DNA of 64,000 bases, from the NCBI GenBank assembly GCA_958009085.1, contig OY253668.1, forward strand, positions 1,178,001 through 1,242,000. Direction: 5' to 3'. Each line of letters opens with the position of its first letter. The first letter of the stretch is position 1. The notes beneath the pieces are model-generated. The model saw nothing but the letters and a program-made list of their open reading frames with translations. It did no database searches and had not been told where the DNA came from. The position numbers were made by a program, and so were the translations under genes. This document shows, piece by piece, positions 1,976 to 63,758 of the stretch. This DNA is from Protoeuglena noctilucae (taxonomy: Eukaryota).

Positions 1976-4524
1976 ATGGCCAAGGTGGACTCGGAGCGCA
2001 TGGCCCCTGCGGGGGCGGAGCTCCCTCGCCGCCGCAAGGTCCCTCCCAACCACCAGCCCATCATCGACCCCGAGCACACCATGACGAGCCAGCAGCGGAC
2101 CCGCGAGATCAACACCGCGCTGTGGGGGTTCTACAAGCACGTCGAGACGGAGGTAGCGGACCAGCTGGGCTTCCCAAACCCTCTCGAGACGGGCGTCCCC
2201 ATCAGCCCGCTCCTCCCGCTCCTCGCTCGCCACATCAACAACAGTGAGTCGAGCCTCGGCCGCGTGCTCGCACGGGCGCTGCCTGAAGCGCCGTTCCCGT
2301 GCTGCCCCGTCTCGGCTGCGTGCTCGCTCGCACGGGTGCTGCTTGGAGCGCCGTTTCGTGCTCGATATTGCCCGTCTCTCCTCCGTCCGACAGTTGGAGA
2401 CCCCTTCATGCCAAGTGCCTTCAAGGTCAACGCCCACAGCTTCGAGCAAGGCGTCATTCGCTTCTTTGGGAATCTCTTCGACGTGCCCCCGGAGGACCTC
2501 TGGGGTTACGGTGAGCGAGGAGGAGCGGCGGGGCATGGGAGGAGCGGCAGCGCGTGGGTTGGGAGCCGCAGATGGGTCGCTGGGAAATGTTTGGGGGCTT
2601 TTGCGGGCCCCTCGTGTAGGATGGCACGCCTTGGCGCAACCAAGGGAGTCCTCCGCGCTGCCCGCCCCCGCAGTGACGTCCGGGGGCACGGAGAGCGTGC
2701 TGCAGAGCATGTACACGGCGCGGCAGAACTTCCCAGACGCTCCCTTCTTCTTCAGCAAGGAGTCGCACTACTGCGTGTACAAGGCGGCGCGCATGATGGG
2801 CGTGGAGAAGGTGGAGATCAACACGCAGGAGGGCGGCGAGATCGACTACGGCGAGCTGCGGGAGGCCCTGCGCAAGAACCGAGAGGCCGGCCGCAAGGCG
2901 GTGGTCAACCTTAACGTGGGCACGACCGTGCGCGGCGCAATCGACGACATCGACAAGGTCGCGGCCATCCTGGAGGAGACGGGGAACAAGCGGGAGGACT
3001 TCTTCATCAACGCAGACGCGGCCCTGGTGAGCGAGGGCGCTCGTGCTGTGCAGATGTGGAGGCTCGCCTGTGCCCTGTGATGCCGGGGGGCTTGGCTGAC
3101 CGACCGGTGGCGTGCATGGGCTGGCTGACATGGTGTCGGCACCACCTGCCCTGACCAATCTCGTCGTGACTGCTTTCTCAGTTCGGCATGATGCTCGCGC
3201 TCGGGGACGAGGAGGCCCACGGCAAGGTGTCGTTCCGCAAGCCCATCGATGCCATTGCCGTCTCCGGCCACAAGTTCATCGGCTGCCCCATGCCCTGCGG
3301 CATCTGCATCATCCGCCGTCACTTGCTCGAGCCCATGCGCCACGAGGTGAGGGTTGCGGATGGGACGCGATGTGACTGGGCAGTGCCTGGGTCCGGTATT
3401 TGGGAAGCATGCTTGGCGTGCACGGTGCTTGATTGCCTGGACGTGCTCCCTTGCACGTTCCCTTGCGCACGCTTGACCTACCCGCACGTGCCTCATCCTT
3501 CCCAGATCCCGTACCTGTCGAGCATCGACGACACGCTCACCGGGTCCCGCAACGGCATGCTCGCCGTCTACCTGTGGTACCTGCTGTCCTACCGCGGCAT
3601 CGAGGCAAGTGCGCGTGCCGAGTGCCTGTGCCGGCGGGGTGGGAGTGGCTGTTGATGATGTATGGAAATGCCATGTTTGAGTGTTTCTCCAGTTTGACAA
3701 CCCCGTCTTATCGTGCTCTGGCAGGCCTACAAGGAGGACGTGCGCCATGTGTACCGCATGTCCGAGGAGCTCAAGTCCATGGTGAGACCGTAGGGCGGCC
3801 CCTTGGCTGGCAATGACCCGGCAGAGGGGGACTGTGCGCAGCGGGCGAGTGAGGCAGCATGGCGCCCTGTCCTCGGCCGCAGCTCGAGAAGGGCGGCGTC
3901 AAGGGAGTGCAGCTCAATCCGTACAGCAACATCGTGGTGTTCCCGACGCTCAAGGAGCACAACTTTGCGGCCAAGTGGGACCTGAGCTCCGCGGGCGGGC
4001 AGTCCCACGTGGTGGTGCTGCCCACCATGGACCCCCAGACGCTCAAGCTCTTTGGGGAGACCTACATCGCCTGCAAGGACGCCGCCGAGGCCGCCGAGCG
4101 TGAGTGCGACGCGCGTGACTTGCCGGGGTGCTCAGACGCATGCCGCGTTCCCCCTTGCGCTGCACACGGGGCCGTGGCTGGATGTCGCGTTGAACCGATA
4201 TTGGCCTGGCAGTGTCGATGATAGCCCAGCTGCTGCTCAACCACAGCCGGGGGATCACGTAGCCACACCACGGCCGGCTCGCTCGCAGGCGGGGAGGAGG
4301 TGGACGTGGAGGGCATCCGCAAGCGCATGCGGGGCGTGCCGTCGCTGGCGAGCCTGGTGATGCGGCCCAGCACGACCACGCACCGCAAGGGCGGGAAGGA
4401 GCCCACTCCCGAGGAGGCCAGCACGACGGGCACGAGCTCTGGCACGAGCGAGGACGAGGGCGCAGGACAGGCCAAGGGGCAGCAGGGCAAGTGCGGCCGC
4501 AAGGCTGGCCTGAAGCACGACTGA
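1976..4524 (+). CDS. Group II PLP-dependent amino-acid decarboxylase (serine/histidine decarboxylase family), ~8 exons
   Basis: Motifs INNIGDPF, WGYVTSGGTES, SHYCVYKAARM, NVGTTVRGAIDD, SGHKFIGCPMPCG (PLP lysine) and YLSSIDDTLTGSRNG are recovered after splicing. The C-terminal exon boundaries are less certain. Confidence 0.88.
2254..2378 (+). repeat. Degenerate two-copy direct repeat (~55-65 nt) inside a decarboxylase intron
   Basis: gcgtgctcgcacgggcgctgcctgaagcgccgttcccgtgct...cccgtctc recurs as gcgtgctcgctcgcacgggtgctgcttggagcgccgtttcgtgct...cccgtctc. Confidence 0.75.
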
Positions 4525-4999
4525 GTGAGCGGGAAAGGAAGGGGCGGATGGCTAGGGCAGTCGCAAGGCTGGAGAGCGGTAGGGGCTGGGCTAGGCGAGA
4601 GCGCTAGAGTGGCTTTGTTTGTTCCGTTGCTTTGCACGCTGCTTGGCAATGCATGCATGTGTTGAAACGGGCACCTGCGTCACCATTCCATCACAAGGCC
4701 ACGACATGACAAGGCCACGATACATACAAGCGTCGCGTCCAGCGCGCACCGTGCTAGCGAGCCAAGTCGGGGCAAACTCTAACCTACAGCGGGCGCTCGG
4801 ATGTCGTCGGCTGCTAAAACAGCCCTCGCGCGCTCGGTGCTCGAGCAGCGGTGAGCCGCTCCGACCACGTGCTAGGCGCTCGACGGTGCGTGAATTGCGA
4901 AAGCCACAGGCTTCCCAAAAAGAGAGATGCTCCTGGTACAGGCGCCGCGCGCCTCAGGAGCCATCGTTACCGGCCCTCCCGCCCCTCCGCGCGCCCTCC

Positions 5000-7900
5000 T
5001 CAGTCAGCCTTGTCGTCTCCGGCCCGCGCCTTGCCGCGCTTGTCCTTCTCCATCGCCTTCTTCTTCACCAAGTCGTCCAGCAGCTCGTCCTCGTCCGTCT
5101 TGATCTCCTCGTTGTACAGCTCGCGGCTGATCTCCATGATCAGCGCGTCCATCCCAAGGTCCTGCATCGATACAACGAGTCATGAGAGGTGTCAGGGAGG
5201 CACTCCATGCCATGCCAGGCACCCCATGGACTTCGGATGCCCCTTGCCGTGACCAGGGCCGGGGGTCGAGATAGATTCGTGCCCCCGTGGCAGCCCTCTG
5301 ACATGTCGAATCTGGCGTTTCGCGGCTCGCCTGGGGGAGGTCCGCGAGGACTTGGGACATGCGCCACATCTCCCGGCGGTGCAGGCGCAGGAAGGGGCGC
5401 ATGAGGAAGAGGGCGAGCAGCACGGCCATCACGACCGTCCCCGCAAAGACGCCGATGTTGATGCGCTGGATTGTCTTCAGCTGGTCAATGTTGTTCGTCA
5501 CTAGAGTCCCGCTGCGTGCGGGAAGGGAGAGCCGACGTGCCGCGCCGCGCGTCGGCCACGGCCACCAGCCCTGATGCACAGCATGAGACCCCGACGCCAC
5601 GGCATCTCCGCCCTCACCTCTCCCCGACGCCCTTGAAGAGGTCGCTGGTGCCGACGTTCTGCAGGAGCTGGTATCGCTCGTTCAGCGGCGTCAGCCACGC
5701 GTCGTGGTCCGTGGCGAGGTACTTGGCCTCCTCCACCAGATTCTGCGTCGTGATGTACAGCCCGCGCTGGTCCAGCCACTTCAGGTCCGCCTCGTCGGCG
5801 CACGACCCGGACGACGCCAGGCACACATCGCCGAAGAAGAGCGTCGTGAGGGCGGGGACGTCCCAGATCGTGCCGCCCACCACGTTGCGCCCCTGGAAAT
5901 TGCGATTGCCGAAGATGAAGGCTTTGATGGCCTGGACGGAGAGGTTGGCCGCGTCGGTCATCTTCGTACGCGTGGTCGCGAGCACGTCCGCGCTGGCGCC
6001 CTCGGCCGCCAGGGCCACGAGCTCCCCGGACCAGGTGATGATGGCGGTGGCGGCGTAGGTGAAGGTGGTGACGGCGTACTTGGGCTCGAGGAGGTGGCGC
6101 TCGCGGCGCTGCAGCTGCCACGTCATGCCCTCGACCACAGCGATGACCGCGGCCCAGGCCAGCACGGGCAGGAGGAAGAGCAGGTCCCCGGCGCGCCTCC
6201 GCCAGGCGCCACGCTCGCCCGCCGACCCCGAGATGACGTCCTGCCTGGCGCGCAGCACCCGCGTGTAGGGCAGGCGCATGGCCAGCAGCTGCTGCACGCG
6301 CCGGCGCCGCGACTTGGGGTCGCCCTTGGTCACGGCGTCCAGCAGCGCCTGCTTCTTGTTGCCCGTTTGCGGGGCCTGGACGCCCGGGGTGGGCAGGTCC
6401 GCGGCCTCATACTGCTCCGAGGCGTCGGCGTCGTCCTCCTCCAGGACCCCGAGCGAGACCTCCCTCTGGGAGAACTCCAGGGCGATGGGGCGGGGCACGG
6501 CGATGAGCAGGGCAAAGAGCGTCATGCGCAGCTCGTGGATGCGGGCCAGGCGGGACTTGAGGACGAAGAGCACGATGGGCGCGACGCCCCCGACCTCGAT
6601 GGCCAGGAACACGATGGCGAGGATGCCGATGGACCGCAGCGAGGAGCCCGCGAAGTCCTGCATTTGCGCCTCGATCTGCAGAAGTCGGGGCGATGTGGAA
6701 TGAACCCAAGACGGAGTCGGGCGCTTCGCGTCACATGTTTCTGACGACACCGCTAAAACACCGCGCGGGGACACTCGCCTGCTGGGCGCGGTCGACTAAC
6801 GACGACGCGTTATCGGAAATAAACTGGAACTCGAAGGTATTGGACAGCATCGGCGGATTTGCAGACGCCAGCGTGTCTGGGGAGGTGCAGAGAAGAGATA
6901 TGTCGCATCTGGCGGGACACACGTCCAATGCTGACTGCGATGGGCGTGGTATGTCGCATGCGTGGTGCGGGCAGGCAAGGACAGGCGCGGGCAGGCGAGG
7001 AGCTTACCCGCGGACCCGACAAAGACCACCACGGAGTCGAAGTAGTTGTTCTGGAAGTTGATCTTGGGCGCACCCGTGTTCGGCCTGGTCGCACAGGGGA
7101 AGGAAGCGCGTGGGTGCGGCGCTGCGATCGCTGAGCCAGCAACCGAGGCGCAACACGGCAGCGATGGTCACCAGGGGTCCACAATGTTGACCAGGTTGTT
7201 GCCCTTCCAGAGGTCGTACAGCGTCCGGTGCGTGTGCCCGTTGATTTTGCTCAGGGCCTCGTAGAGGAGCTCGTTGTTCTCCGAGATGGTCTTGCCGCGC
7301 GACGCCAGTCGGCTCCGAGCGTCCGCGAGCGTCAGCCAGGGGTAGTCGCGGTAGGCGGCGTAGGACTCGATGATGCGGGCGTAGAGGAGGGTGCTGATGA
7401 ACATGCGCTTCTGCTGCCCCGCGTTCTTGAGGTAGCCGACGATGACCGACTGGCGGCCCACGGCGTCAACCAGGAGCGCGAAGCCCACGGCATGCACGGC
7501 CACGATGACCAGGAGGGACAGCACCAGGGCACGCTGCATGCGCCGGAATGGCTTGAACAGCGTTTTGGACGTCAGGAGGGCGTGGATGCGGTTCAGGCGC
7601 GCCACGCGCTCCTCGTTCGACCCTGCAGGGGCGGACAGAGACGCGGTGACGTGGCACGCGGAGGCTCGGGCCAAGCGTGGCCGCAGCTGCGGGCTGCTGC
7701 AGCGCGCCGGGAGCCCCCACCGATGTGCACGATGTCCGAGGCCGCCTCCTCCGCAGCCTCCGTCGCCCCCGGCTGGGTCATCGCCTTCTCCGCCGCCACC
7801 GACATGGCTTTGTCCGCGGCCGTCGACTCGGCCGCCTTGGCCGCCTCGTACCGCGGGGGCGGCGACGCGTCCCTCGCCTTCGCCACGAGCAGCGCGGGCT

Positions 7901-10900
7901 CCTGCTCCGTGCCCTTCCTGCCCCGTCGCAGGCTGCGGACGTGGCGGCCGCCCGCCTCGTCCCTACCTCCGCCCGCCTCTGCCATGTACCCGGCCAGCGG
8001 GTCCCCGCTCGCACCCACGTTCGCCGCGAGACGGGACGGACCCCTGCGACCGACGCGGGCAGCATTGGTGCCTGGATGCGTGCGGGCCACAGCCGGCCGA
8101 TATCTATGGCTGGCAAACCGGGTACTCACCGCTGCAAGATAGGGTGTGGCGGCTGCGCTGCCGTCGCGGGTGCCACTGCGGGCGCCTCCGCCATCGCTGC
8201 AGGCGCAGGGTCGTCCTCGGGCGGCATGTCCGCGCCCGCCGACGGCTGCGGCTGCTTCTTGTCGGCCCATGCCTTGTCCAGCTTCTCGAGCGTCTCCGGC
8301 CTGAGCGGGAGGGCCTGCCCCGGTGCCGCGTCGCCGGGGAAGGCCTCGGAGCGGGCGAGCGTGCCGCTGCCCTCGACCCAGGCCACGGTGCGCTGGTACC
8401 AGAAGCTGCGGGGGGGTCGTGCGGGTATGGACTGAAGATGATGGTATTGAGGAGAAGCGAGAGCGAGTGGAAGATGAACCGTGAACGGCAATGCAAGCAG
8501 CAGGACCCGCTTGCGTGGATGGCCCACAGCGGTAGAAGCGGACAGCCGGAGTCAACCGCATGACCTCCACACGTGACTCGCCTCGATGTGTCGACGTTCC
8601 TCCCGGACTCCCGCACGCTCTGGCCGCTCTCGTGGCTCCCTTGCCCCGCCGACGCGGCCTCCGCGGGCACCGAGAGCCGGCTCGGGTGCCGGGCGATGAA
8701 CTGGCGGCCGCTGGTCGTATGCCCCATCTGCCGCACCACGTCCCGCTCCTCGCCCTCGACAACCTCCGCTTCCCCGGAAGAGCCGTCCTTAATTGCCCCC
8801 CGCGCAGCCGCACCCTCGCTGCCGCCCTCCCTGTCCTCGTCGTCCTGGTCCACATCCTTGTCCGCCCCACCCGCATCCCCGCTGGCCACAAAGTACGAGT
8901 CCATGGTGTTGAGCCGCGCGCGCGGGTGGGGCCGCTGCGGGCCGCTCCCGCTGCCCACGCGCTCTGCTGGCAGCAGCGGCTCTCCACCCCGTGGGGCCGC
9001 GGCCTTGCCCTCCTTCGCCGGCCCCCCGTCCTGCACCCGACTGGCGCGCTCGGGCTGGCTCGCGCGCTCGGTGTTGGCCGGGCTGCAGCCGTCGGCGTCC
9101 TGGGTGTTGTGCGCGGTGATCGTCTTGCGCCTCCGCATCTTCCCCGCCCCGGACTGGGTCACCCGCCTCCCCGACGCAGTGCTCGCGTGCGGCCCGTCGC
9201 CCTCGGCGACCGACGGCCGCGCTACGCTCGCCACCGACATTTTGGACTTGCGCCGAGTCGTCAGCGCCAGCGGAGGGAACGCGATGCCTGCAAAAGCACT
9301 TAAGGTGTGGGTGTGGCTTCGTGGGCCAGGCCCAGATAGACAGCAGCGACAGCTGAAAGCCGCGTCATGGTGACAGCAAACACCGAGAGTCGCTGCCACG
9401 GGCCGTCACCTGGGTCGGGCCACACCATGAGCAGCACGTCCGATCGCTCGCTGGACTTGAATGCCTGGACGGTCACGAGGATGGCCGCGCCGTCCGGGCA
9501 CCTGAGCTCCACGCCCTCCACGCGGCGGCTGCAGACGTCAACGCCCTTGAGCACGCCCGGGCCCCGCTTGTCCTGGCTGCCCAGGGTCAGCAGGGCGTCC
9601 ATGCCCGCGCCCTCGGGGACCACGGGCAGCAGCCTCGACAGGTGCTGGCCGACTACCTCGGTCGGCGTTCGAACCCCCAGGACGTCGTTCGCGTGCCCCA
9701 CCAGCCGCTTGACCGTGAGTTCCCCGTCGAGCACCACGCACAGCCGCTGGACGTCGAGCCGGGCGAGGCGCACGCGCGCCACCGCCGCGTCGCCGTCCGG
9801 CACCGGCAGCGCCGTGAGCGTGACGGGCACGAGGTCGTCCGTGCCGCCCTGGGCCATGCACCGCATCGGCGGCTGTGCGCCCTGGGCGAGCGCGGCCAGC
9901 ACGGCCCGCGGCGCCGACTCGAGGACCAGGACCTCCTCGATCGACTTGCCGACGAGCTCCGCGATGCTCTGGAACTCGAGGATGTCCGCAACTGAGGCGT
10001 CCGCCACGCGCCCGTCCGCGCCCAGGCTGAGCTCGACCGCCACGTCCGCGTCGGCCTCCTGCTGCCCGCACTGGGAGAGCTGCAGGGCCAGGATGTCACC
10101 CGAGGTGGAGAAGAAGGTCTCTGGGGAACAGTACAGGGCGGCAAGGGCTGTTTGGGTGCACGAGTGGCACGTGCCTGGCACTGCATGTCTCACTCAACAC
10201 ATTGCAAGCCCTCAGCGATGTGCGGACGCGACGGGCGCGGCCGCGGCGCTCACCTGGCCCGCTGTCCGTCGCGTTCTCGCTCAGCGCCCGCAGCTTCACG
10301 GCCATGAGGTCTCCCGATGCGGTGACGACCTCCACGGGCCGCGAGAAGATGCACGGGGCCCAGGCGTCCGTCTGAGGGCAGATGAGAGTCCAAGCACACT
10401 GAGCATGCTCTCTTACAGCAGAAGGCACGACAACCGTCGACGTCTCGCGCTCGCCAGCCCGCTCGTCCGCCTCACAAGGTCGTAGTCGTCGGACTTGCCG
10501 CTCATGGCGCACTTGTGCACCACGGCCACCTCCGGCGCCATCAGATCGAAGAGCGTGCGGGACGTGAGGCCCTGCACGTCGTACCCCAGCATCTCCTGGG
10601 CACTCTGGTTGCCACCCACGATGCGCAGGGTGCCCGGCGTCACTCTCAGGACCGCCGGCTCGGCCTCCGTCCTCTGCAAACAGAGCGAGTCAGGTCATGG
10701 AGGCAGGCATGAACCGGCATAACTCACGCTCGCTTGCCCGTCGACCCAAGCATCGCACAAGCAGTCCAGCAACGCCTGTACCCAAAAGAACAGGAGGCAG
10801 GCTCCGGCCCCACCTTCATGGAGACGATGACGACGGGGAACCTCGGCGACCCCACGAGCACCGCGTGGGCCTGCACGGGGACCTGCGACGCCCCGCGGAA

Positions 10901-13900: not shown

Positions 13901-14126
13901 CCCTCAGGTTGGCCACCGCCGCGACCCCGTCGTAGGCGCGGAGGAAGGCGCGTCTTGCCTTGGGCACGGCGCTCATCCATGACCACGCCAGCTCCGCAAA
14001 CGTCGTCCTGCGGAACGAGAGCCCCTTGTCGGCCGCGGAGCCATCACGAGACACTTCCGAGCCCTCGTGCGAGCTGCCGTTGCTCGAGAGGTCGCCGCTG
14101 TAGACGCTGCTTCCCGACGTATTCAT
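5000..14126 (-). CDS. Large multi-pass membrane protein with TPR-like region and several PAS domains (tiny macrocysts TmcB / algal FXL-like), paralog A, multi-exon
   Basis: N-terminal TM block (C..DLNP motif); YRNILQRYPTNARLLRAYGVFIQTVRGN helical repeat; PAS repeats (DAVVVADVGGTIKMVTANVTRMFGYKKQDLIGKDVSIFMPQPLASHH; CSALGYKPQEIAGKP; QEMLGYDVQGLTSRTLFDLM); low-complexity linker; C-terminal TM/lumenal segments. Exon phases join consistently. Confidence 0.8.
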
Positions 14127-15375: not shown

Positions 15376-18300
15376 ATGGAGGGGGACGACCTGGCCCAGG
15401 AGAGCTTCCTCCTCCGGAAGCAGGGCTCGTTGAAGGACGCGGTCTTTGGCGTCCTGTTCACCATCACCAAGGAGCATGAGGAGGCGTCGTGGAAGTGGGG
15501 GGTGCTGGGGATGATCATCGGCTTCCTGCAGGCAAGAGGAAAAGGAGCCGCAGCCAGCAAGCTGAGCAAGCTGCCCTGGGCGAAGACGTGCACGCAACCC
15601 CACCCAAACCCCCGCCCGTTTACCTCCTCCCCAGCTGCTGGTCATACTGATCACGAGCCACTTCAGCTGGGCCTTTGAGAACTCGTGGTGGTCGGTGGCC
15701 ATCCAATGGACCGACGCCACCAACCTGCTGCAAGCGGTCGGATACAGGGCCTTCTCGGCGATCTTCTGGTCGCAATTCTCCATCATCGTCCTGTCCATCA
15801 CCATCTGCCTGTGGGTCGCTTACAACTTCAAGACGGGCAACTTCCCTTTCGTGTGGCCCATCAAGTGCGTGCGCCTCGTCGGTGAATGGCTTCGAGCGAG
15901 ACGGCCATGCCTGTCCACCACTATAGCATGATGCGGTATGCCTTGCAATCCAGGTGCCGACCGCCGGGACTCTGACGCGGCGCCTGTGGCATGCTCGCAG
16001 TGAGCGTCTTCGTGAGGACGCTCTACATCGCCGCCCTCGCCGTGTTCATGATGAGCATCCGGTGCGATAAAAACGGGGCCTTCTACTACTACCAGGACCA
16101 GTCTTGCAAGCGCCTCCCACGCCTCGCGACGCTCATCGCGTCCATCCGCCGGCCCTCGTCACCGTGACGCTCGGCGCCCTCATCGCCGTGGCCGAGGCGG
16201 AGCTGGATCCCTTTTCGCGAAGGGTCGAGGGCGGTGAGGCCTCCTGCCATGGGGCTGGACACTCTCCCTGGACGCGACCTGTGTCCCTCACAGTCTCCAT
16301 GCCCACGCCTTACCGCTGCAAGGTGGCTGTGCAGCACAGCGCACGACCTGTGTTCCACCCCCACCCCTGCGCTCCCTCGCAGTGTCCTTCACGCACTTCA
16401 TGTTCCGGCATTTCCTGGTCCACTCGATCCAGGACGCCCTGGACATCTTCATCAGGGGCACCAACAGCCGCGCGACGCTGGCGGTGCTGCTCTGCGCGCT
16501 GTACCTCTACAACTTCGTCGGGGTGATGTTCTACGCGCCGTACCTCCCCACGTACACCAACGTCCTGGAGGCGGGGCTCAACGGGGTCCTGGCCTGGATC
16601 TCCGTGGTGCTGGTGGCGCTGGAGTTCGTCGTCGGGAGCGAGCAGGACCTCTCGCCCCACGCCAAGCCCATCACGCGCATCATGGCCAACGACATCCTCC
16701 CCGCATTCGTCGTCTGCGCCGGCGTCATGTGGCTGAGGCGAGGGCTACTGGGTTGGGTCCTGAACGCACTGCTTGTCGCCAAATTGTAACCGCTCGTTAA
16801 CGCTTTGTCTGTGTCGCAGGTTGCTCCCATCGAAGCGAAAGGCCAAGTGGATCCGCGACGAGCTGCACGCGGCTGGCATCATCCAGCCGCCGACGCAGAA
16901 TAGCACCGGGCGCGTCCTGAGCTCCTCGCGCGGCTTGGACAGCGCGCGCGCGTACCGCAGTCCCGGTAAGCGCAGCGTGGCGTTCACGGGGTGTCCACGC
17001 CAGTGTCGCCTGCGAGTTGACGTGACCCTGACTGTTGCTCTGGCGCAGTGGAGACGGTCAAGGCCGTGAACAACCGGATGACGACCGAGGCCGAGCGCGT
17101 GGCCGAGATCATGCCCCGGATCCGCTTCGCATGCGCCACGGAGGTGGAGCACGTCTCCCGCTGCATGCGCATCACAGACGAGTACGGCAACCTCGTCGAG
17201 GACTGGCTGGTCACGGCGCTGGTCGTGCTGCGCGAGGGCATGCGCCAGTTCCCGAACGTTAGCGAAGCCTGGGCTCAACCAGACGCATTGCAGTCCCGCA
17301 GGGCGATGACAGAGAACGCACCCGACACCCGCTTTGTTGCAGGTGGCGCGCCTGCGGATGCTTTTCGGCCACTACCTGTGGGTGGTCGTACAAAACACCC
17401 AGGTCGCGTCGGAGCAGTTCGCGGCGGTGCGGAGGGTGCCCATCAACATGGACCTGCAGTTCCAGTGCTTCTGCCGGAGCAGGTGCGGCTCGCAGGTGGG
17501 TCGCAGGTGGCTAGCGTGCGAGAGAGTCGGTAGCCGCTGCTGGCGAACGCGCTCGCGGTCTCCCTGACGTCGCAGGCAGCAAGCACAGAGCAGCGGGTCG
17601 TCGAACAACGCGGAGGGCGCGATGGATCTCGTGTCGTTTGTGGAATTTCAAAATGCACTCAAGGCCGTTCAGAAGACGCAGGCCAGCGCCCTGATGGCCA
17701 TCCGTCAGTTCTGGGGCGAGCTTCTCAGCTCAGGTGAGTCTCTTGTACACGCGTGTACGTCAAAACCATCTCTTAACATGAACAGATCAAGAGAGCGCGA
17801 CGAGCTTTGTGCTTCCCTCCGCGCAGACTCGGTGACCCTGACGCAGCTGTCGGGGACCCTGCGCTCCCTGTCGGCGCTGGAGAGCAAGGCGCACCGGCTG
17901 TATCGCATCATGCTGGAGCGCTACCACGACAACGTGAGCCTCCTGCGGCTCTACGCGACCTTCCTGACTGGCGTCAAGGGTGCGCCCGGCAAGGCCCTTC
18001 GCATGTTCGCCAAGGCCGACAGCCTCGAGGACGCCCAGGCGGAGACGAAGCAAGGGAACCTCGTGACCGGAGGTAAGCCGGGCAGCCGACGCGCTTGACG
18101 CTGCGCCCCGTGTCCTTAACTCGGTGTGGAGTGACCTCGGTGTGGTCTGCCCCGCATGGTCCCCCACCTGGGCTCCTCTCATCGCTTGCCGCAGAGGGTG
18201 GCGACGTCAACGTGGCATCGGGAGCCAAGGATGGGCTCGTGGTCTGCAACGACGCGGGGAACATCCAGTTCACCAACCGCAACCTCAACAGGCTCTTCGG

Positions 18301-21300
18301 GTACTCGATGGGCGAGCTCGTGGGGCTCAATGTCTCGGGTGAGCTCGGATACCGCAAGCAGCGTCGCAATCATTGCAGTCTCGAATCTCAGAGCGAAGCA
18401 CACGAGACAGGGCTGTGTCTTTCGCCAGCGTGACGTAACCTCGCCATCCGTGCCCGTCGCAGTGCTCATGCCCAAGCCTTTCAGCCAGCAGCACAACGGC
18501 TACATCGCCGCCTTCAAACAGACTCGACAGCCCCGCATCATCGGCACGGAGCGCCTGCAGATCGGGCTGCACAAGGACGGTGAGAGGGACATGCCGGTGT
18601 CGCGCGAGAGCCAAGGCTGTCGTACGGCCGCTGGCCGTATCTTAAGAAGTCAAAGCTCGTGCAGCACTGAGCACGAGCCCGACACCGCTTGCTGCTGCGC
18701 CCCCTGCAGGCTCGGCGTTCCCCATCAAGATCCGCGTGATGCACGTGGTCCAGGACGGGCAGGACCAGATGGCCTCGATTCGCCCCGCGGACGTCGACCC
18801 CGCCCAGGGCATCCTCTACATGACGCTTGACGGGAGCGTGCTGTGCGTGTCCGAGGGGCTCACCAACCTCCTTGGGTGGGAGTCCAAGGAGGTGTTCGGG
18901 CAGAGCATCAACAGCCTTGCGCTGGACGGGCTCGACCTGGAGCAAGGCCTCACGGCCATCAAGGTGCGTGACCCCGCGCAGTGCGGGGTCGGCAGCCGCA
19001 CCGGTGGCCTGCGGTGCCTCAACCGTGGCGATCCAAGCGCGCTCCTGTGATCCCTGACAGGCGATCTTTTGGGGCGGTCGCAGGACTCCCTGTCGCTGAA
19101 CGGTCCTGTCGTGCAGCCGTCACTCCGTGACAGCCGGAAGGAGCGCACCTCGGTCGCCGAAAGCCTCGGCCCCGCGTTCAGCGCCAAGTTGCGACGCGTG
19201 CGGATGAGCGACGTCGGCAACAGGGTGGCGCCGGAGCCGCCGCGCGAGGCTGCCCCGGAGACGAACGCCGACGGGACGGCTAACGCGGCCCCGGGCGATG
19301 GGAAGGAGCTGTTCAAGAACGAGAGCCTGCTGCTGAACAGGCCAGGGAACGCGGCGCAGGGCGACAAGGCGGGGGAGCTCACGCAGACCGAGGTGGTGTC
19401 GGGATGGCGGCGGTGATCCGACACAAGTACCTCAAGACCGGGCTGGCTTCCAAGGCGTCCTTCTCGCTGGTCGGGAGGAGGGACGACGCGATTGTGGCCA
19501 TGACGGTGGCGCTGGACGAGGAGCCGGGCGGCATCCTGGTGTGCAGCCGCGACGGCCGCATCCTCTACGTCAACTCGCCCCTGGAGTCGGCGCTGGGCTA
19601 CCCCGCCGGCAGCCTCATCGACGCCGGCGCCAACGTGAGCCATCTGATGCCCCGCGGCTTCGGGCGCTTCCACCAGACCCGCCTACCCCGCGCCGTGGTC
19701 AGCTCGGACTGCGCGGCCATGCACGTGCCCTGCCAGATGGGCCAGGTCGTCATCCTACGTGGCAACCAGGGCGCCCAGGTCCCCGTCCTCCTTTCTTGGA
19801 CTACGCAACGCGAAGCAGCCACCGCGCCCATGTACGTCTGCCTGGCCCGCAAGACCGGCCCCAACGCGGCCCTGGCCCCCTGGGGATTCCGCAGCATCGA
19901 GGGGCAGGTGGAGCAGCAGATCTGCCTGCACATCCTCGTCGACCGGCAGGGCTCCATCGTCGCCGTCGGCCACGGCACGGGTTTCGTCAAGGAGGGCGTC
20001 GCCGGGGGCGTCTTCGGCATCAATGCTGAGACCCTGGCCAGCGCCAACGTCGCCGACTTCATCGAGGTGCTCTCCGCCACCGTCACGGCCGCGCGCAAGT
20101 TCAACCCGTCCATCCCCGTCGGCGACGTCATGGCCGGGGCCCTCGAGCAGCTGAGCCGCGTCGGGGCCGCCTCGGGCATCGCCTCCTTCCGCACCGCCTT
20201 CCGCTGCCCCCCCGGGCCCTACAGCGCCGCGGAGGACCTCGTCCCCGCGCGCCTGGCCGTGCAGCGCGTGGCCGCCACGCGCGTCAACCTGCCCTCCCTG
20301 CGCAAGCTGGGCGTGCTCCGAGGCGAGGCGGACGTCGAGGCGGTGCGGGACGGGTTCGTGCTCGACGTCTGGAGCGCCAACTGGCTCCAGGGCGAGCTGC
20401 AGGTGTCCCCCGCCGGCGTCTTTCTCACTGCCAGCGCGCGCATGGAGGTCCTGTCGGGCCGCCCCGCCTCCCGGCTCGTCCGCTCCGCGCTGTCAAGCTT
20501 GTTCGTGGAGGACACGCCGGGGCAGGTCGACGACGTGCTGGAGGGCCGCAAGCCCTTCGCGGAGCTGCACCTGCGCCACGCGGACGACTCGACCCTCCGC
20601 GTCTCGCTCCTGGGGTCGGGCGACACAGTCTCGGCGGGGAAGAAGCGCGTCACGCTGGTCGTGCGGGCCGTGCAGGAGACGTGCGAGCAGGCCACGGAGG
20701 CCCTGCACCGCATGCAGGCGAGGCGGGGATGGCCGTGCGCGCTGCAGTTCACCGTCATGCCTGCTTTGGTCCTGTTGCTTGCCTTGCAGCCGGCGCTCAT
20801 GTTCATGAGCCCCGCCAAGCAGTTGCCCAGGCCTTGTGGCAACAGCTCGCGTTCACATTCTGAGGACGGGACGCAGACTCTCCATGCTCGCCCCCACGCA
20901 GGTCATCCTGGATCGCGATGCCGGCAAGGGGCCGTTGCGCGTGCGCCTGGGAGGGAAGCAGGGCGCCACCAAGCGCGACTCCGGTGAAATCGGGTCGTCC
21001 TCCACGGAGGCCAACGCGACGACGCCCAAGCGCGAGCGGTCCGGGGTCACGTTCAGCGCGGCGGCCGCGCTGGTGAAGAACGTGGTGCGGATGGGCGGGA
21101 CCGTGTCGGGCGGGGAGGTCCGCGAGGGCGTGCGGGTGGCGGAGGAGCCTGCGAAGGGCAAGGCGGTGGTGCTGGACGAGGGGCGCGACGATGCGGAGGA
21201 GTCGACGGCGGGGTCCGAGGACTCGGACGACAGCGGGGACGAGTCGCTGGTGCACACAAACGCGGAGGAGGAGGAGGACGGGGCGTCGAGCCAGGGGGTG

Positions 21301-28485: not shown

Positions 28486-32927
<4,442 letters not shown>

Positions 32928-45757: not shown

Positions 45758-45968
45758 TGGCGGACAACAACATGTACGCATGGCGCGAGCTGAGACATGG
45801 CACAACGTCCATGCTCGCCGACTGAGGGTGGGCGCTTTGTTGGCGTTTTCAAGACTTGGCTGCGGACGGCTAGGTTTCACAGTTGTCCGAGAGTCTGGCT
45901 CCCAGGTTGAAAGAATCGCTTGTCAGGAGTTTTGGCTCCGTGCTCACGTTGTGTTTGCTACACCGTTG

Positions 45969-47926
45969 CTATGCCTTTGCCTGCTGGTCAATGGCCAGTA
46001 ACGACTGCTGGGCGATGCTCAGCTCCTCGTCCGTCGGGACAATCATCAGCTTCACCTTGCTGCCCTGCGCCTGGAACTCCCCGCTCTTCCCGCCCACCAG
46101 CGCCTTGTTCTGCGGATGCCAAAACACCTGGGTGCTCGCTGCGATCGGTCCCACCGACTCTCGGCTCTCACCCCAGCAGCAATCTCAGAGGCGGTGACAG
46201 GACGAGGACATACCGCAGGCAATCACGCTGGTCGCCATCACGCTGTCACGACATCGCATGCCGCCCGCCCTCGCCTTGGCAGCATCCGCCAGGATCCCCA
46301 GGCCCTGCAGGCCATCGACAATCGCCCCGCGGACCGACGCCGCGTTCTCCCCGATCCCCGCCGTAAAGACCACCGCGTCCGCCTGGCCCCCGAGCTCCAC
46401 CAGGTACGCTCCCAGGTACTTGCGGACCCTGCAGCGCCATGCGAGCCCACGCAGTCGCCATGGGGCCCAGAGAGCCAAGCACAATCACAAAGTGAGCCAA
46501 GCATGGGCACAATGTGAGCCAAGCACAAGTACCCAGTGAGCCGAGCATAAGCACAGAGTGAGCCAAACATGGGCACCGAGTGAGCCAGGCACAGGCACCG
46601 AGTGATGGTCATGCGCGTGCCGAGATCCTCGCCTGCGCACGAACAGGTCGTGTGCCAGCTGCGCCCGCGCGTCGCCCTTGGCCATGGCCTCCAGGATGCT
46701 GCGGAAGTCCTTCTGCCCGCACACGCCCAGCAGGCCGCTGCTCTTGTTCAGCAGGGAGTCCACCTCGTCCGGCGTCTTCTTCAAGTGATTCAAAAGGTAC
46801 AGAACAGCAGCAGGGTCGACGTCACCGCACCTGCGTGCCGAGCGGAGCGGGTGCATGCGGGGGTAGGCGCGCCGCTGTCGAGGTGTGCTTGGTGCAAGCG
46901 TCAGCTGCCAGGTGTTGTCCATGCACGTGCTCGTCGCCCCGCACCTGCTGGCCATGACGAGCCCCTCGAGGGGCGTGACGCCCATGGTGGTGTCGACCGA
47001 CTTGCCCCCCCGCACGCAACACATGGACGACCCCGCTCCCAGGTGACACACGATGAGGTTGACGTCCTCCGGGCGCTTGCCCAGCATCTGCGCCGTCTTG
47101 GCCGTCACGTACTTGTAGCTCGTGCCATGGAAGCCGTACCGCCGGATCTTGAGGTCCTGGAAACGACACGCGTCGAAGGAACGTGCTTTGGTTGCGCAGT
47201 ACGCATCGATACTCATCGCTCAGCTCGGACGCTGCGACCTGTGCTTCCATGCCGCGCACGCTGTTGATGTGTGACGTCTTTCCTCGAAGACGTGGTAGGG
47301 CAGCGCGTACATGAAGGCCGAGGGCGCCATGGTCATGTGGAAGGCGGTGTCAAAGACGACGACTTGGGGGCACGTGAAGACTTGCGAGGCGGCCTCGATG
47401 CCCATGAGGTTGGGAGGGTTGTGGAGAGGGGCCAGACTTGAGACCTGTCGGATGGCCTTGAGGACCTCCGGCTGCACCACCGTTGCCTCTGTGAAGAAGG
47501 GCCCGCCGTGCACCACGCGATGGCCGACCGCCTTCATCTCGTCGGCGATGCTCGAGGAGAACTTGGAGCGCAAGACCTCGATCACTTTGGTCAGCGCGAT
47601 CGTGTGGTCTGGGATGGCCTCGTCCCGCGTCGCCTTCGGGCTGTCCATGACCTGCGGGACCACGCCCTTGTGCGCATCGTCTCGGGAAGAAATCTGAAAG
47701 ACTTCGAGGTCGCAACGGCCCCCAGCGTGCTCCGCTGGCCGACAAACACCTCATAGTGCATCGATGACTCCTTGTCGCCGATCCTCTCCACGAGGCCGGA
47801 AGCGAGGACCCCCAGCGCCGAGGCTGCCGAGCCCTGGCCCTGCCCGAAGAGTTTGAACTTCAGACTGCTGCTGCCCGAGTTGATAACGAGCACCTTGGCC
47901 CCTCGGACGATCGAGGTGGCCACCAT
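45969..47926 (-). CDS. ACK: Acetate kinase, multi-exon; a possible upstream targeting exon may start at 48326
   Basis: VLVINSGSSSLKFKLF, GHRVVHGG, APLHNPPN, VFDTAFH, IRRYGFHGTSY, CHLGAGSS, DTTMGVTPLEGLVM, VFTAGIGEN and PTDEELSIA. Confidence 0.95.
46470..46604 (+). repeat. Intronic minisatellite, about six ~22-nt units (GTGAGCCAAGCA core)
   Basis: Units agagccaagcacaatcacaa / agtgagccaagcatgggcacaa / tgtgagccaagcacaagtaccc / agtgagccgagcataagcacag / agtgagccaaacatgggcaccg / agtgagccaggcacaggcaccg lie within an ACK intron. Confidence 0.85.
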
Positions 47927-48478
47927 CTCTGCTCCCCGACGCGACCAGCGCGGCGCAAGGTCGCCCGAAGGGAAACAGGCGTTGGCGTGAGCCCGGGAGC
48001 GCGACGGGGTGCCAGAGGGTCGCGATGGTGCGGGTGTTGTTCCACCGTTGTCCGCGAGGGTCTCACGGGGCCTGGTTTTTGGCGACGGGCACCGGGGCCG
48101 CTTGACACACAGTGAGACGTGTCACCGCTGGAAACCCGCGATCCGATTGCGGTTTCGCATTCCCAGGGCGAGATTGGCCGTCTGGGATTAGAAAAAGGAG
48201 ACGGGAAGCAGCGGCGAGTCCAAATCTCGTCCACACGCAGCGTTCCTTCGCTGGGCTCGATCGGCAGAGGCGGGCGAAGGAGCGCGCGACGCGCGACGAG
48301 GGTGAGCTCGCGAGCGACAACTTCATCAGTTAGATACGCAGTTGCGTTTTGGGGGCGTATGGAGCGCGCGATTGCCGATCAGCTCGACCGTTACACTTTT
48401 GCGCCGTGTCCCGGCCCGATGTCGACCCCTGCCGTCTCGCAGGGCGTGTGACATCATCAGCGATCGCAAGCGTGCACC

Positions 48479-51561: not shown

Positions 51562-54333
51562 TCACGCCGACACATGACACCGCCTTGACACACAGTCACT
51601 GAGCGAGCCGGCCGCCCTCACCTGGCCTCGGTGCTTCTGTGGGGCCTGCAGGGTCTGGAAGCGCGGCTTGCGTGCGCGCAGGACGGTGTACGTGAGCCAG
51701 TGGTTGAAGAGGGTGAGCCGGGCCAGGGCGGCGAGGGAGTCCTTGGGCGAGGCGCTGAGGCCCATGCGCTCGAGCGCCTGCTCGCCCGTGGCCACGTGGC
51801 CCTGCTGCGTGGCGTCGAACGTCAGCCCGCGCATCTCGTTGGCGCACAGGCCCTCGAAGGCCTGCTTCACGACGGACGTGCGGGGCGCCCAGCGGAGGAG
51901 CCGCGGCAGGGTCCTCTCCGATACGTAGATGGGGTTGGCGATGACGGCGATGGTCATGACGAGCGGCCCGAACACGAGCGCGGCGTCGGCCGTTGGCGCG
52001 GCCGATGAGATGGCCATCCCAATGCTACCGGCGCAAATGGACTCGGCAACTGCGATGCCCAGGAAGGTCGCAAAGCGGTCCAGGCGACGGTGAAGGCCGC
52101 AAGAGGGGTAGACCAAGGCGCCGAACAGGGCGGGGAAGAAGGCGCCGACGGGCAGCTCTGCCATGAGCTTGGCGAGGAGGTACGGGCCGACCTGGTACGC
52201 GCTCTTGGTGCGCTCGCGGGACACGATGGTGCGCTCCCGGGGGAAGATGTTGAGGGTCTGCGGGGGGAGGTGGGAACTAGGTGCGTGGCTTTCTGCAACC
52301 AAAACCGAGTCTGGTGCCATGAGAGCAAGCAGTCGCTGTCGTGATGCGAGCGTGCGGCCATGCCACGCTGTCGACTCTAACCTTGGACACCGTGGACATG
52401 GCCGTCTGGACCGCGACGACTTGCAAGAGGCCCATGCGGTTCTGCACGGCCACCTGGCTGCGGCCCAGGCCCCGGAAGATGGAGCCGAAGATGACGGCGG
52501 AGCCGATGGAGGCACCGAGGCGGGCGAAGTTCGTCGCCTTGTCCCGCAAACTGCAGGAAGCGGGAAGCGTGCGCATGGGCTGCCGGCAGGCGCAGAAGCG
52601 TACCCGGCTCGCGCTCCAGCCATCCGCTCAGAGCGGTGACAGTGATGACAGTGTCCTCAGGTCACCTCTGGCGCAGGGACCTTTGGAACAGCAGCTGCAT
52701 TTGCCGGAAGAAGCCGCTGCGAGGCGCCTCCAGACCGGGAGTGTCGACGAGCTCGTCGTGCAGGAGGGGCCGAGAGGCGCGGCCCTTGCCGTCGGGACGG
52801 CGCAAGAGGTCCACGGACTCCTCGACGAGTCGGTCCAGGCGAGCACGCGTGGCTGTCTCGGCCTCCTTGGTCGCATAGTCGACGGACACGAGGTCAATTA
52901 GATAGTCACCCGGGTTGTAGTTGGCGGGGCAGGGGAACCCGAGGCTCGCGAAGTGCGACGCAGCCTCGCTGGCGGGCCCGGCGTACAGGCACTGCCCCTC
53001 CGAGAGGAGCACGAGGTCGTCGAAGGAGGCGAAGATGCTTGAGCGGGGCTGGTGGACGGAGCAGACCACTGCAGACGAGACGCGGCAGGAGGGTGGCATG
53101 CGGGGGACGGTGGCATGCAGTGGTAGAGTGGCATGTGGCAGTAGGGTGTTGTGGGTGCAGAAGCACAGCGGAGCATGGGGCAACCTCACCTGTGTGTCCC
53201 TGGCTGGCCAGGCCCTTCAGCGTGGCCATCACGCGCTCGGCTTGGAAGGCGTCGAGGCCGGAGGTCGGCTCGTCAAGAAACAGCACCGAGGGTGACCCGA
53301 TGAGTTCGCATGCGATGGACAGCCGCTTCTTCTCTCCGCCCGACAGGCCACGTGTCTTGGCGTCCCCCACCACCGTGTCCCTGCACTTCCCGAGCCTGCG
53401 TGGTCGCCGGGTGGCGTGGACATCTAATGTCGTCTGTCCAGCGCTCGACAACAACGGCAGCCATGGCGAGTACTTGCTTTGTGCATCATCACATCGCATG
53501 GCTTCACGTGCACCAGCTACTCCCCGCTTGCGCTCTAACCAACACACCGCCCCGCTCACCCGAGGCGCGTGATGATGCTGTCCACGTACTGGGCCGCCCT
53601 GTCCCTGGGGTTGGAGGACGGGAGGCGCAGCTGCGCCGCGGTCATCAGCGTCTCGTGGACGGTGAGCTGCGAGAAGAAGAGGTCCTCCTGCTGCACGTAG
53701 CCGATGCAAACGTGCGACCGGCCCTGGGGCGTGCCGTTCAGCTCCACCTCCCCCTCCAGGCGCATGCCCTTCGTTTGCGGGACCTGCCCTGCCAGAGCGT
53801 TCAACAGGGTCGTCTTGCCCGACCCGCTGGGACCCATGATGGCGAGCAGACGGCCCGGGTGAGCAGCGCCGGACAGGCCCCTGCGGATCAGCACGCACGC
53901 GCTTACGTCACGGCGACAAGTGCACGTCACGGCGATGCGTGCTTGCCCTCGGGGACGCCGCATTGCTCTGCCAGTCCTCAGGTGTCACCTGAGGATCTTC
54001 TTCACTCCCTTCTTCGTCCGTAGCTCGCATCGCAGCTCTCGCCACTCGATATCGATGGGATGCACGGGCGCGTCCAAAACATGGCTCTCATCATCCTCGC
54101 CCGCCGCCCTCCGAGCTCGCCGAACCCGCATCGCCTGCCTCACGCCTCCAATGACGTTGACGAGGCATGACGCGGCGAGGAGCGGGATCTGGGGCGGCGA
54201 GATGGAGTGGATGATGGCGGCGGGGCACGCCGCGCATATCCGGGGCCAAATCTCCAGCTCTGAGGCTGTTGCTTGCCTGGTTTTGCGGAAACGCCAGCGA
54301 GGCGCATCCAATCAGCGCGGCAACGGGCGCCAT
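51562..54333 (-). CDS. ABCG half-transporter (ABCG7/WBC7-like); 3' end uncertain
   Basis: Walker [24 protein letters not shown], signature LSGGEKKRL, Walker [12 protein letters not shown] and H-loop SVHQPR, followed by a C-terminal ABC2 TM domain ([20 protein letters not shown]). Confidence 0.9.
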
Positions 54334-56538: not shown

Positions 56539-56581
56539 GAGTGAGTAGACGATGCGCGGCCTTGAACGCACGCGACGAGCG

Positions 56582-57420
56582 TCACGCGTCCCCGCCAGGC
56601 CGCGTCCCCGACGGGACCGCGGGCTCGGACGGGGGCCGGAAGCGCGCGGCGGCCTCGAGCCCCAGCCTCGCGCAGTGGCGGTTCAGGTTGGCCAGCAGCG
56701 GGAGGTCGCGCACGGGGATCCACCGGGCCTCGTCGACGTCGTCCGCCGCCACGGGGTGCAGCGTCGGGTCGACGGGCGCAGCCGCGACCTCCACGATCGT
56801 GTAGTGAAACTGCAGGCGTCCCTCAGCGTCCTTGACGATCGTGTCTACCGCCGCGTACGGGACCGGGAACGTCAGTTCCTGCGGCTTCCACTGCGGCGGG
56901 CGCCCGACTACGTAGGCGCTGCGCAGGAGCCCGGACGGCCCGCTCCCGGCCCACTCCCCCTCGGACGCCGACCCGTCGTCCTGCTCGCTCTGTCCCACGG
57001 GGTCGTAGTGGTAGCCCAGGGTGTCCCCCAGGCGATGGTAGGCAGTCCGGTCGAATCGCAGCTCCAAGTTGCACTCCTCGCGGATCTCCCGCACCGCGCA
57101 CTCGGCCAACGACTCCCCCAGCTCCTGTGTACCGCCTGGGAAGGACCAGTTCCCCTTGCTGGGCGCCTTGCCGCGCTTGATGACCACCACTTCGACCTCC
57201 TCCGTGTCGGGATTCGTTCTGGACCGGCGAGAGAGCGGGGAGTGGAGGCCTCCATGCAAAAAGCCGCAGCGTTTCGGCTCCTGCGCCGGCCAGCGATGCT
57301 CGCCTGAGGATCACCACGCCCACACCAACCCTAGGAACAGCTGGGTACTCTCTGCGCGTCGATGCGTCGCTCTCGGCCGCTCCCGCCCTCAACGCTACAT
57401 GCCGGAAGTGCCCTAGCCGC
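56582..57420 (-). CDS. Nudix hydrolase (bacterial ADP-ribose pyrophosphatase-like); start not resolved (5' coordinate approximate)
   Basis: REYPAVPRVGVGVVILR|TNPD..VVVIKRGKAP..WSFPGGTQELGESLAECAVREIREEC (Nudix box), followed by FHYTIVE..AADDVDEARW. Confidence 0.8.
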
Positions 57421-59235: not shown

Positions 59236-59419
59236 GGCAACATCTCCTGTCATCGTGCGCCTATCGCTCGCGGCGAGCCGCTGCGAAGGGCGCAACTCCG
59301 GTATGCGCAGAGCTTGGCAGGCCGCAACTAGACCTGTAAGTCCTTTGCACAGCACGAGAGAGCAGCTGCACAATGAATCTCGCGGCGAGGGCCATTCAAT
59401 CGGGCCCCCGTGCATAGTT

Positions 59420-61818: not shown

Positions 61819-63758
61819 ATGGCGGACGAGGACTACGACATGAGCTCGCCTTTGGGAGCGGCTGCGCCTCGGCCCACCGAGCCCTTGCATGCAGCTTACG
61901 CGGAGGGATATGGGTACGCGTCTGGCGCTCCCCAAGGGGGCAAGGAATTCGCGTTCCTTAACAACGACAACGACCGGACTGCGCCGGCCTTGACCCAGCG
62001 CGACCCGAACGTGCAGGCGTCCGGAAAGGCGAGAGCTGGGAGGGAAACGAACGCTTTATCTGTTGCAAAGGTGGTTGCGACCCACCACCCTGTGTCGGCG
62101 TTCGACGGCCCCCACCCTGGCCCGCATGCGCAGATGGGGAGTGCGGGGCGGGGAGTGCCAATCGGTGCCATGTTCGGGAGCGGCGGTGCGAAGGAGAGCA
62201 AGAGCCTCTTCGGCTCGTCGTTCGCCAACGCAAAACCTGCCCGCGATCTTGTGACGGGGCCGAGCGCCCTGCCGAGCGACAACGGCAACATGCCGCCCTC
62301 CTCCGCGCCCGGCGCACGCGTCGACAACCGGCCCACCGTCAAGGTGTCGCAGGAAAGCATGCCGGCTGTCCGGCCGACCGCCCTTCCGGCCGCCGGGGCT
62401 TCCGACCCTGGGACCAAGGTCTCTGCCGCGGCTGTCAAGGACGAGCCCTCCACGCCCGTGGCCATCCGCACCGGCATCACCGCCCTCCAAGCCTCTCTGC
62501 CCGGAGAATTGCAGTGAGGCTTGCTTGCCCGCCGGCCCCTCGCATGGCCGGCCCGTGCCATGCAAGCCACCCTGGGCCTGCCCCTGTCCCCTTGCAGGAG
62601 CCTCTTGGCGTGGCGGAACCCCGCTCAGACCATCGTTGTGCTCGGTCTGTGTGGGCTGGCGCTGGCCGTGATCCAGTTCGTGGCGTCTGGGGGCCTCGGT
62701 ATCTCGCTGGTCGAGGGGGTCGCCTACGTCCTCCTCGCCCGCCTGGCCATGGGGTTCGTGTCCGCCACGCTCGGCGCGTCTTCTCGCGACAGCGCGCAGG
62801 TCTGGGACGCCACCATCGACTGGGCCAGCAGCAGCCTCCGCAGCGTCTGCCAGGGGTACGAGACGGCCATCCACAACCCCAACCCCCATGCCACGCTGGC
62901 CTTCACCCTGGCCCTCTGGGCCGTCGCCGTCGTCGGCCGCGTCCTCCGCCCCCACCACGTCGCCTGGCTCGTGCTCGGCGTGGCCTTCGCGGCCGCCCCC
63001 GCATGGGCCCGCTTGCACCGGGTGGTCAAGTGCGGATGGTCCTTCGCTGCGGAGGCCCTGGACCATCAGATGGAGGCGAGCGCAGCGCCCTGCATGTGCC
63101 TACTCAGTCAGAGTGCGGGGCACTCTGCTTCACCGCGCCACCTCTATTCATTCGCTGCACCCACCCCCCTCGATTTCTTGAGGTCCCACTAACGATGAGC
63201 CCGCGGTGTGATCCCTCGCAGAAGATGCAAATCACCCGCGGCAAGCGTGCCGTGGCCCTCGTGGTGGCCCTGGCCTTCTTCTGGCTGTACGTCGGGTGGG
63301 TGCACCGCGCGGTGTCTCTCCTGGTGGCCCTCGAGCTCATCCGGTGCCAGATGACCCCCCAGGAGGCGAAGAGCATGATGGAGACGGTGGGGCCCGTGGT
63401 GAAGAAGACCGTGGGGGACGTCACGAGCGTCATGAAGGCGTGGACGCCCCGAGGCAAGACGTACATGACGCCCGCCCCCAACCAGGGCTCCCTGGTGACC
63501 GACGCGGCTCTCCCGGCATGCCTACGACGACAAGCGAACGAGGGCTTGTTCGTTCGGCAAGTGGCCTTAGGCGCGACAGACCTTCGCGGGCCTCCTGCCT
63601 GCAGAACTTTGGAGCCGCAGAAGAACACCCGATGTTTAAAACCAAGGGGCAGTGAGGGCTGCGAGTACAGCAAGCAGCGACCCCTGACGTCCCTGTCACG
63701 TGCCCTGCCGCGATCGCCACCGAGCGCAGCCACTGGTTGGGGCAGCACCATAGCCTAG
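61819..63758 (+). CDS. Reticulon-domain protein with long disordered N-terminus; 3' end uncertain
   Basis: SLLAWRNPAQTIVVLG..SLVEGVAYVLL..ALWAVAVVGR..WLVLGVAFAAAPAW matches the reticulon double-hairpin pattern. Confidence 0.65.

Follow-up and report, generated by a model that had tools for sequence, protein, structure and literature searches.

Predicted GC-AG introns are frequent across the Protoeuglena noctilucae genome and concentrate where both donor flanks match U1

Why does a stretch of the Protoeuglena noctilucae genome hold so many introns that begin with GC rather than GT? The stretch, which we refer to as the window, is 64 kb of contig OY253668.1 (1178001–1242000) in an assembly of 26.33 Mb and 27 contigs; it is gene-dense, with 66.5% GC (66% in the genome) and introns of median length ~130 nt. 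An initial annotation had listed 18 GC donors here, all of the form AG/GCRAG (the slash marks the splice junction), and all 18 coordinates carry this motif on the strand given. Predicted introns, homology and intronless proteins together confirm that the GC-AG introns are real and occur genome-wide.

The motif alone is weak evidence, because about half of the 42 copies of AG/GCRAG in the window are expected by chance (an estimate from its base composition). A gene finder that we wrote and self-trained on the window and 15 blocks of 40 kb, with no GC-specific motif at the start (the GC matrix started from the GT matrix), recovered 16 of the 18 sites among 125 introns in the window; the two it missed, 54276 and 57303, yield clean frames when spliced. 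At eight sites there is no frame-keeping GT within 30 nt, at the remaining ten each GT alternative scores <0, against 4.1–6.3 for the GC context, and CAG ends all 18 introns. The annotation had also held that no GT alternative would restore the protein within conserved motifs; protein-to-genome alignment with GT, GC, GA and GG at equal cost chose GC at 31009, 31587, 44326, 46274 and 46632 in MCM7, NFS1 and acetate kinase (the alignment was run for part of the listed sites and did not reach 54276). Open-reading frames (ORFs) of other assemblies add to this: P0247 and P0248, from strains 96% identical, read through 20718 with Ala, and the read-through P0249, on 16 contigs, has Ala at 63076, so the C at these two positions is not an assembly error. 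Least certain of the 18 is 62029, which is stop-free, a multiple of three in length and in an unconserved region. A JGI scan with exon 20902–22239 found no relatives among 220 candidate stretches, and two mixed-exon profile searches returned read-through ORFs and relatives only, with no additional spliced native protein. Four RNA runs (X1–X4, metatranscriptome contigs of one study) contained 0.21–0.48 of the sampled words of 14001–23900 and were not used as evidence. The introns are listed below, with gene labels from our searches or from the initial annotation.

3605..3724, + strand: GC-AG intron, GAG/GCAAGT, pyridoxal phosphate (PLP)-dependent decarboxylase gene; gene finder, no better GT, in-frame stops inside
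5162..5330, − strand: GC-AG intron, CAG/GCGAGC, large PAS-like membrane-protein gene; gene finder, no better GT
6676..6778, − strand: GC-AG intron, CAG/GCGAGT, same gene as 5162..5330; gene finder, no better GT
8406..8581, − strand: GC-AG intron, GAG/GCGAGT, same gene as 5162..5330; gene finder, no better GT
15532..15634, + strand: GC-AG intron, CAG/GCAAGA, second large PAS-domain gene; gene finder, no better GT
16738..16819, + strand: GC-AG intron, GAG/GCGAGG; gene finder; the P0251 read-through shows that +2 is not T in a related strain
20718..20901, + strand: GC-AG intron, CAG/GCGAGG; gene finder; C common to strain ORFs P0247 and P0248
22938..23047, + strand: GC-AG intron, CAG/GCGAGT; gene finder, no better GT
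23669..23765, + strand: GC-AG intron, GAG/GCGAGG; gene finder, no better GT
31009..31142, + strand: GC-AG intron, MCM7, GVAKSQ/LL; gene finder; alignment with P0220
31587..31730, + strand: GC-AG intron, MCM7, RRSAQ/ENINLP; gene finder; alignment with P0127; stops inside
44326..44403, + strand: GC-AG intron, NFS1, QTEHK/CVLDS; stop-free and a multiple of three, yet absent from intronless protein P0001; alignment
46110..46274, − strand: GC-AG intron, acetate kinase, AAG/GCGAGG; gene finder; alignment with two homologues
46429..46632, − strand: GC-AG intron, acetate kinase, LFVR/RVRKY region, CAG/GCGAGG; gene finder; alignment with two homologues
47157..47282, − strand: GA-AG intron, acetate kinase, GAG/GAAAGA; alignment with two homologues; in-frame stop
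54189..54276, − strand: GC-AG intron, first of the ABCG gene, CAG/GCAAGC; clean frame once spliced, lacks a frame-keeping GT, missed by the gene finder
57219..57303, − strand: GC-AG intron, Nudix gene, CAG/GCGAGC; clean frame once spliced, missed by the gene finder
62029..62133, + strand: probable GC-AG intron, reticulon-family gene, AAG/GCGAGA; gene finder; stop-free, a multiple of three, unconserved region
63076..63221, + strand: GC-AG intron, reticulon-family gene, GAG/GCGAGC; gene finder; C present in P0249 on 16 contigs

Removal from GC to AG is seen most directly in proteins without introns. P0001 (JGI and Logan) is an intronless NFS1 of 476 amino acids, identical to the seven exons in the window; its junctions are five GT-AG and one GC-AG (44326–44403), with QTEHK joined to CVLDS. 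It occurs on six contigs, the longest of 1,976 nt and shorter than the gene, and from contig size and lack of introns P0001 most likely derives from transcripts. Outside the window, our predicted U1C and the intronless P0260 are identical across a GC-AG intron, and here too contig size and absence of introns point to a transcript. At two GC-AG introns in Prp8 the flanking residues, 1505/1506 (human numbering) and 276/277 (8xi2_A), meet with no gap.

The annotation had put the GC share above one in ten, and after hand corrections the window holds ~18 of 131 (14%, 95% confidence interval (CI) 8–21%). Its further claim of a rate far above 1% extends to the genome. In a sample of 944 kb (3.6% of the genome, in blocks picked by position and not at random), 315 of 1,763 predicted introns are GC-AG, or 17.9% (95% CI 16.1–19.7%), of which false calls may make up about one percentage point. 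The training set contributed 212 of 1,213, with GC calls in all 16 blocks, and a hold-out of 280 kb contributed 103 of 550. When GA and GG were allowed under the same matrix and prior, 206 GC, 9 GA and 7 GG donors were called in training, and 100, 9 and 6 in the hold-out, i.e., ~1% for each control; under the GT matrix and a 1% prior, 190 GC, 9 GA and 8 GG calls persisted. Extrapolated from this 3.6%, the genome would hold roughly 7,000–9,000 GC donors. Raw counts of AG/GCRAG cannot size the class (358 in 600 kb, against 286 under a second-order Markov model).

Predicted GC and GT introns are alike in length, body GC and acceptor features, with branch-like motifs at rates of 0.26 and 0.24; they differ in donor context. 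The GC share climbs with the number of U1 matches, from 2/87 at three to 107/270 at six. In the pooled set the two-sided class AG/GYRAG holds 280 GT and 257 GC donors, whereas one-sided classes hold few GC; GT donors tend towards strength on a single side, with 193 AG/GTRAG observed and 274 expected. At the fullest match, AG/GYRAGT, the balance is inverted, with 13 GT and 74 GC (6 and 23 in the hold-out alone). The +6 base of the 280 AG/GTRAG donors is T in 13 and A in 53, T follows 74 of 257 AG/GCRAG donors, and in intron bodies T and A are about equal (826 vs. 870). Whole-genome 9-mers, counted with no gene model, show the same in milder form: CAGGTRAGT occurs 404 times, CAGGTRAGA 994 and CAGGCRAGT 1,287 (reversed controls 169, 171 and 207, respectively), a GC:GT ratio in CAGGYRAGT of 3.2 raw and 4.6 control-subtracted, and T at +6 after CAG/GTRAG is 2.3- to 3.3-fold below the expectation from intron composition. 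The annotation had proposed that a non-T base at +2 is tolerated between a perfect exonic AG and intronic RAG. GC is nearly confined to such donors; ‘non-T’, however, was too broad, as the base is C and rarely A (one well-supported GA-AG intron), and ‘tolerated’ may be too weak, with GC 3–5 times as common as GT in the best-matching context. As side observations from the window and the genome sample, +3 is G in ~90% of GT and GC donors alike, and A at +3 occurs in 33 of 259 AG/GC.AG and 9 of 300 AG/GT.AG donors.

The GC introns have these features of U2-type GC-AG introns: flanks complementary to U1 (AG/GCRAG in 257 of 315 calls, i.e., not in all), acceptors like those of GT introns, and removal from GC to AG in P0001 and P0260, whose transcript origin is our reading of the contigs. 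The donor matrix has GAG at +3 to +5 and not the ATCC of U12-type donors (a comparison of the donor motif only). The annotation had named U1 and U6 small nuclear RNAs (snRNAs) as places to look for substitutions, and we found no snRNA change: the one U1 locus detected has the 5′ end AUACUUACCUG, the U1 and U6 pairing segments are standard, U6 has ACAGAGA and U5 loop 1 is standard. A model (41 of 427 candidates scored) and a DNA search found no variant U1 complementary to the odd donors, although a very divergent copy could escape both.

Comparison with relatives places these donors in a wider setting. The best named MCM7 match is Pedinophyceae sp. YPF-701, also the named row closest to the window's in the MCM7 tree (18 rows, 196 columns); no supported set contains the window's row, and we treat the organism as a marine green alga, probably pedinophyte-like, with a class that this tree does not establish. 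The closest locus (L065/L066, 77% MCM7 identity) has one GC among two alignable MCM7 introns, CAG/GCGAGT. At one MCM7 position, with 14 of 41 loci aligned, L091 and L094 have GC, whereas L079, L087, L088, L095 and L105 have GT. GC donors are therefore not peculiar to this species. Our gene model was mis-specified for the relatives' loci, and its results there served as a lead only. Loci L065–L069, from the closest relatives, have few MCM7 introns (two, or none across residues 68–659) compared with ~14 in this species, and L091 and L094, with GAG/GCGYGCG donors, possibly belong to another GC-AG-rich alga, one whose donor context differs.

We favour, with a probability of roughly one half, the reading that the introns are of the ordinary major-spliceosome kind, with donors kept within a range of U1 pairing strength. 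With the U1 5′ end standard, a GC donor leaves one A–C mismatch at +2, in the middle of the duplex; U1 small nuclear ribonucleoprotein (snRNP) binds +2C better than +2A (PMC4383343). The lower limit, or floor, is seen as a pattern, the near-confinement of GC to donors whose two flanks both pair. GC-biased mutation or gene conversion would turn GT into GC at resident introns wherever this floor allows. Less surely, a mild, ~threefold penalty on fully paired GT donors (AG/GTRAGT), a ceiling, would make GC the commoner form in the strongest context; its simplest cause would be that an over-stable U1 duplex is slow in the hand-over to U6. Intron C/T of 0.8–1.45 combined with the 3.3-fold deficit predicts a GC:GT ratio of 2.7–4.7 (observed 3.2–4.6), so that a single factor, taken with intron-body composition, would account for this ratio and for the shortage of T at +6 alike.

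Several results weigh against a ceiling. The 944-kb sample (4 GT vs. 35 GC at predicted CAG/GYRAGT) overstated the inversion relative to the whole genome. Additive ceiling models improve on a saturating model by just 9.4 or 3.9 log units, and neither kind reproduces 13:74, both fitting the key classes badly. T/A is already 0.6–0.7 at +7 and +8 of the same donors, which may point to a lower local baseline; there is no depletion of C at −3; and every donor table is built on predicted introns. GC bias alone can also yield the perfect-context ratio, because the GC share there, 0.76–0.82, equals C/(C+T) at fourfold sites (0.75–0.83).

This last point underlies a serious rival, in our view somewhat less likely, in which a floor and GC-biased substitution act with no ceiling, so that no selection acts on +2 in saturated contexts and it sits at the GC equilibrium of the genome. 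This fits C/(C+T) at fourfold sites, which is 0.825 overall and 0.75 where a G stands on either side; genomic GC has been linked to GC-AG share (PMC3033335), negative exon–intron correlation is a known threshold effect (PMC4671708), and the organism of L091 and L094, also GC-rich (70%), has GC at the shared MCM7 position where five other loci have GT. Such an equilibrium, however, cannot push T at +6 below A (T/A 0.29–0.41 genome-wide vs. 0.95 in intron bodies), and intron bodies are just ~63% GC. A recent drain could explain +6, but the relative at 77% MCM7 identity already has CAG/GCGAGT.

An improbable alternative is that a lineage-specific change in a U1 snRNP protein relaxed the checking of +2 or altered U1 release. 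The annotation had also pointed to U1C and Prp8: U1C does carry four substitutions, while the two Prp8 exons compared are conserved. The U1C zinc finger (L106:1501–1871) differs from human by T11S, Y12F, P18L and S19V, of which residues 11, 12 and 19 touch the duplex backbone (PMC4383343). Single Ala changes at those residues are, however, harmless in yeast (PMC4383343), and Y12F recurs in P0262 and P0264. The U1C of a related organism (P0261, P0262) is likewise without hydroxyls at 11, 12 and 19. The sole LUC7 gene found (L141:1509–2194) has CMVS and GKQY in its second zinc finger, where Tyr replaces the last His of the yeast finger and Ser stands where a second Cys would be expected. From sequence comparison, the U1C and LUC7 differences are leads only. 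Against such a change, the Prp8 exons covering human residues 1506–1752 and 1802–2038, to which the comparison was limited, are highly conserved and match human in the 1585-loop region and in QACLK, and DDX23 and METTL16 are present. In the DDX23/Prp28 gene itself (L140, L136; C23, ~147900–154300), 7 of 17 predicted donors are GC, and tandemly repeated mini-exons lie near motifs III and IV, perhaps through real duplication or an assembly error.

We consider it very improbable that the GC donors arrived with introner elements, as in Micromonas pusilla, which have since decayed. GC donors occur in 53% of IE-A1 introners (PMC3879977), and their share in introner families is 0–50% (PMC9860276); MCM7 introns are few or lacking in close relatives, so that intron gain in this lineage is possible. 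On the other side, BLAST among the 1,763 sampled introns, a comparison covering the same 944 kb of 26.3 Mb, matched 2 of 315 GC introns to another and none over >60% of its length; intron-start matches in the next exon are not in excess (7.5% vs. 5.6%, a three-base match test only); and the GC introns equal GT introns in length and body GC. P0220 or P0127 span both MCM7 GC positions intron-free, these relatives being intron-poor or already spliced. Finally, an artefact of chance motifs, gene-finder bias or systematic base-calling error is hardly credible, despite the chance copies of the motif and at least one frameshift in the assembly relative to other strains, given the low GA and GG controls, the calls that persist at a 1% prior, the two intronless proteins across GC junctions and the gap-free Prp8 joins.

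Beyond the reading of donors kept within limits of U1 pairing, we suggest tentatively that selection could favour GC at every donor where GT would match U1 in full, with the spliceosome penalising full complementarity and thousands of strong donors detuned in this way, and that altered U1C or LUC7 zinc fingers might set the ceiling and admit a rare GA class. The GA-AG intron at 47157–47282, absent from the initial list, has a single frame-keeping GT alternative, which scores −7.3, and its donor A at 47282 is present in P0122, an ORF on 18 contigs. Candidate GA calls in the control runs were 9 of 1,215 and 9 of 555.

The window contains a head-to-head pair of very large genes for PAS-like membrane proteins, at 5005–14126 (−) and 15376–24452 (+), with 8 of the 18 GC donors between them. 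In the second, a one-base assembly error or allele is probable at ~19390–19405, where P0248 stays in one frame and the window shifts; a gene-finder ‘intron’ at 19413–19477 is false. At 15880–16235 of this gene the exons are irregular, and gene model and by-eye reading disagree. Acetate kinase at 45960–47930 (−) is head to head with a gene at 48480–51232 (+), which we take to encode phosphate acetyltransferase.

The initial annotation had regarded high GC-AG rates as mainly a dinoflagellate trait. This did not hold, as they are published for GC-rich algae, green ones included: 39.6% in Aureococcus anophagefferens, 22.2% in Micromonas pusilla and 7.7% in Chlorella sp., with standard U1 and a share tied to genomic GC (PMC3033335). 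A high rate alone is therefore not new. P. noctilucae resembles these algae in its high genomic GC, high GC-AG share and standard U1 5′ end; unlike in M. pusilla, whose excess is attributed to introner IE-A1 (PMC3879977), the 3.6% of the genome compared showed no families of introns. With U2-type GC-AG introns of plants, animals and fungi it shares GC and AG termini, compensating flanks that match U1, standard snRNAs and a GT-type acceptor, but here they are ~14-fold commoner (1.2% in plants, PMC6310983) and outnumber GT where the donor context matches best. GT donors here tend to be one-sided, as in the left- and right-handed donor classes linked to LUC7 (PMC11842720) and in the exon–intron anticorrelation (PMC4671708); in contrast to those systems, GC fills the two-sided class here and T at +6 drops below the background level instead of approaching it. 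The acetate kinase GA donor, with upstream AG and downstream A, is like the GA-AG introns of Eurytemora affinis and Oikopleura dioica (PMC7072748), although GA reaches at most ~1% in this alga and our searches gave no variant U1. The inversion was not seen for GC-AG-rich algae in the accessible portions of PMC3033335 and PMC3879977. In mostly open literature we found no report of such a rate in a pedinophyte, of GC exceeding GT in the perfect context, or of a high rate with no introner signal, and the supplementary species tables of PMC3033335, PMC6310983 and the YPF-701 preprint may list further algae; ‘splice’ is absent from the main text of that genome preprint (10.1101/2021.10.04.463119), and ‘GC-AG’ from PMC12574857. 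The rate is of a known kind, and what appears new is the lack of an introner signal together with the inversion.

In 2011 it was described as an enigma how GC-AG-rich genomes arise, and introners have since been linked to the case of M. pusilla; the P. noctilucae genome appears to offer an introner-free case with thousands of GC donors. Annotation that forbids GC donors would break ~1 in 6 of its junctions, two in Prp8 included. Experiments in yeast and in human disagree on whether splicing suffers from an over-stable U1 duplex (PMC11842720), and this one genome, with RNA-seq, could test it.

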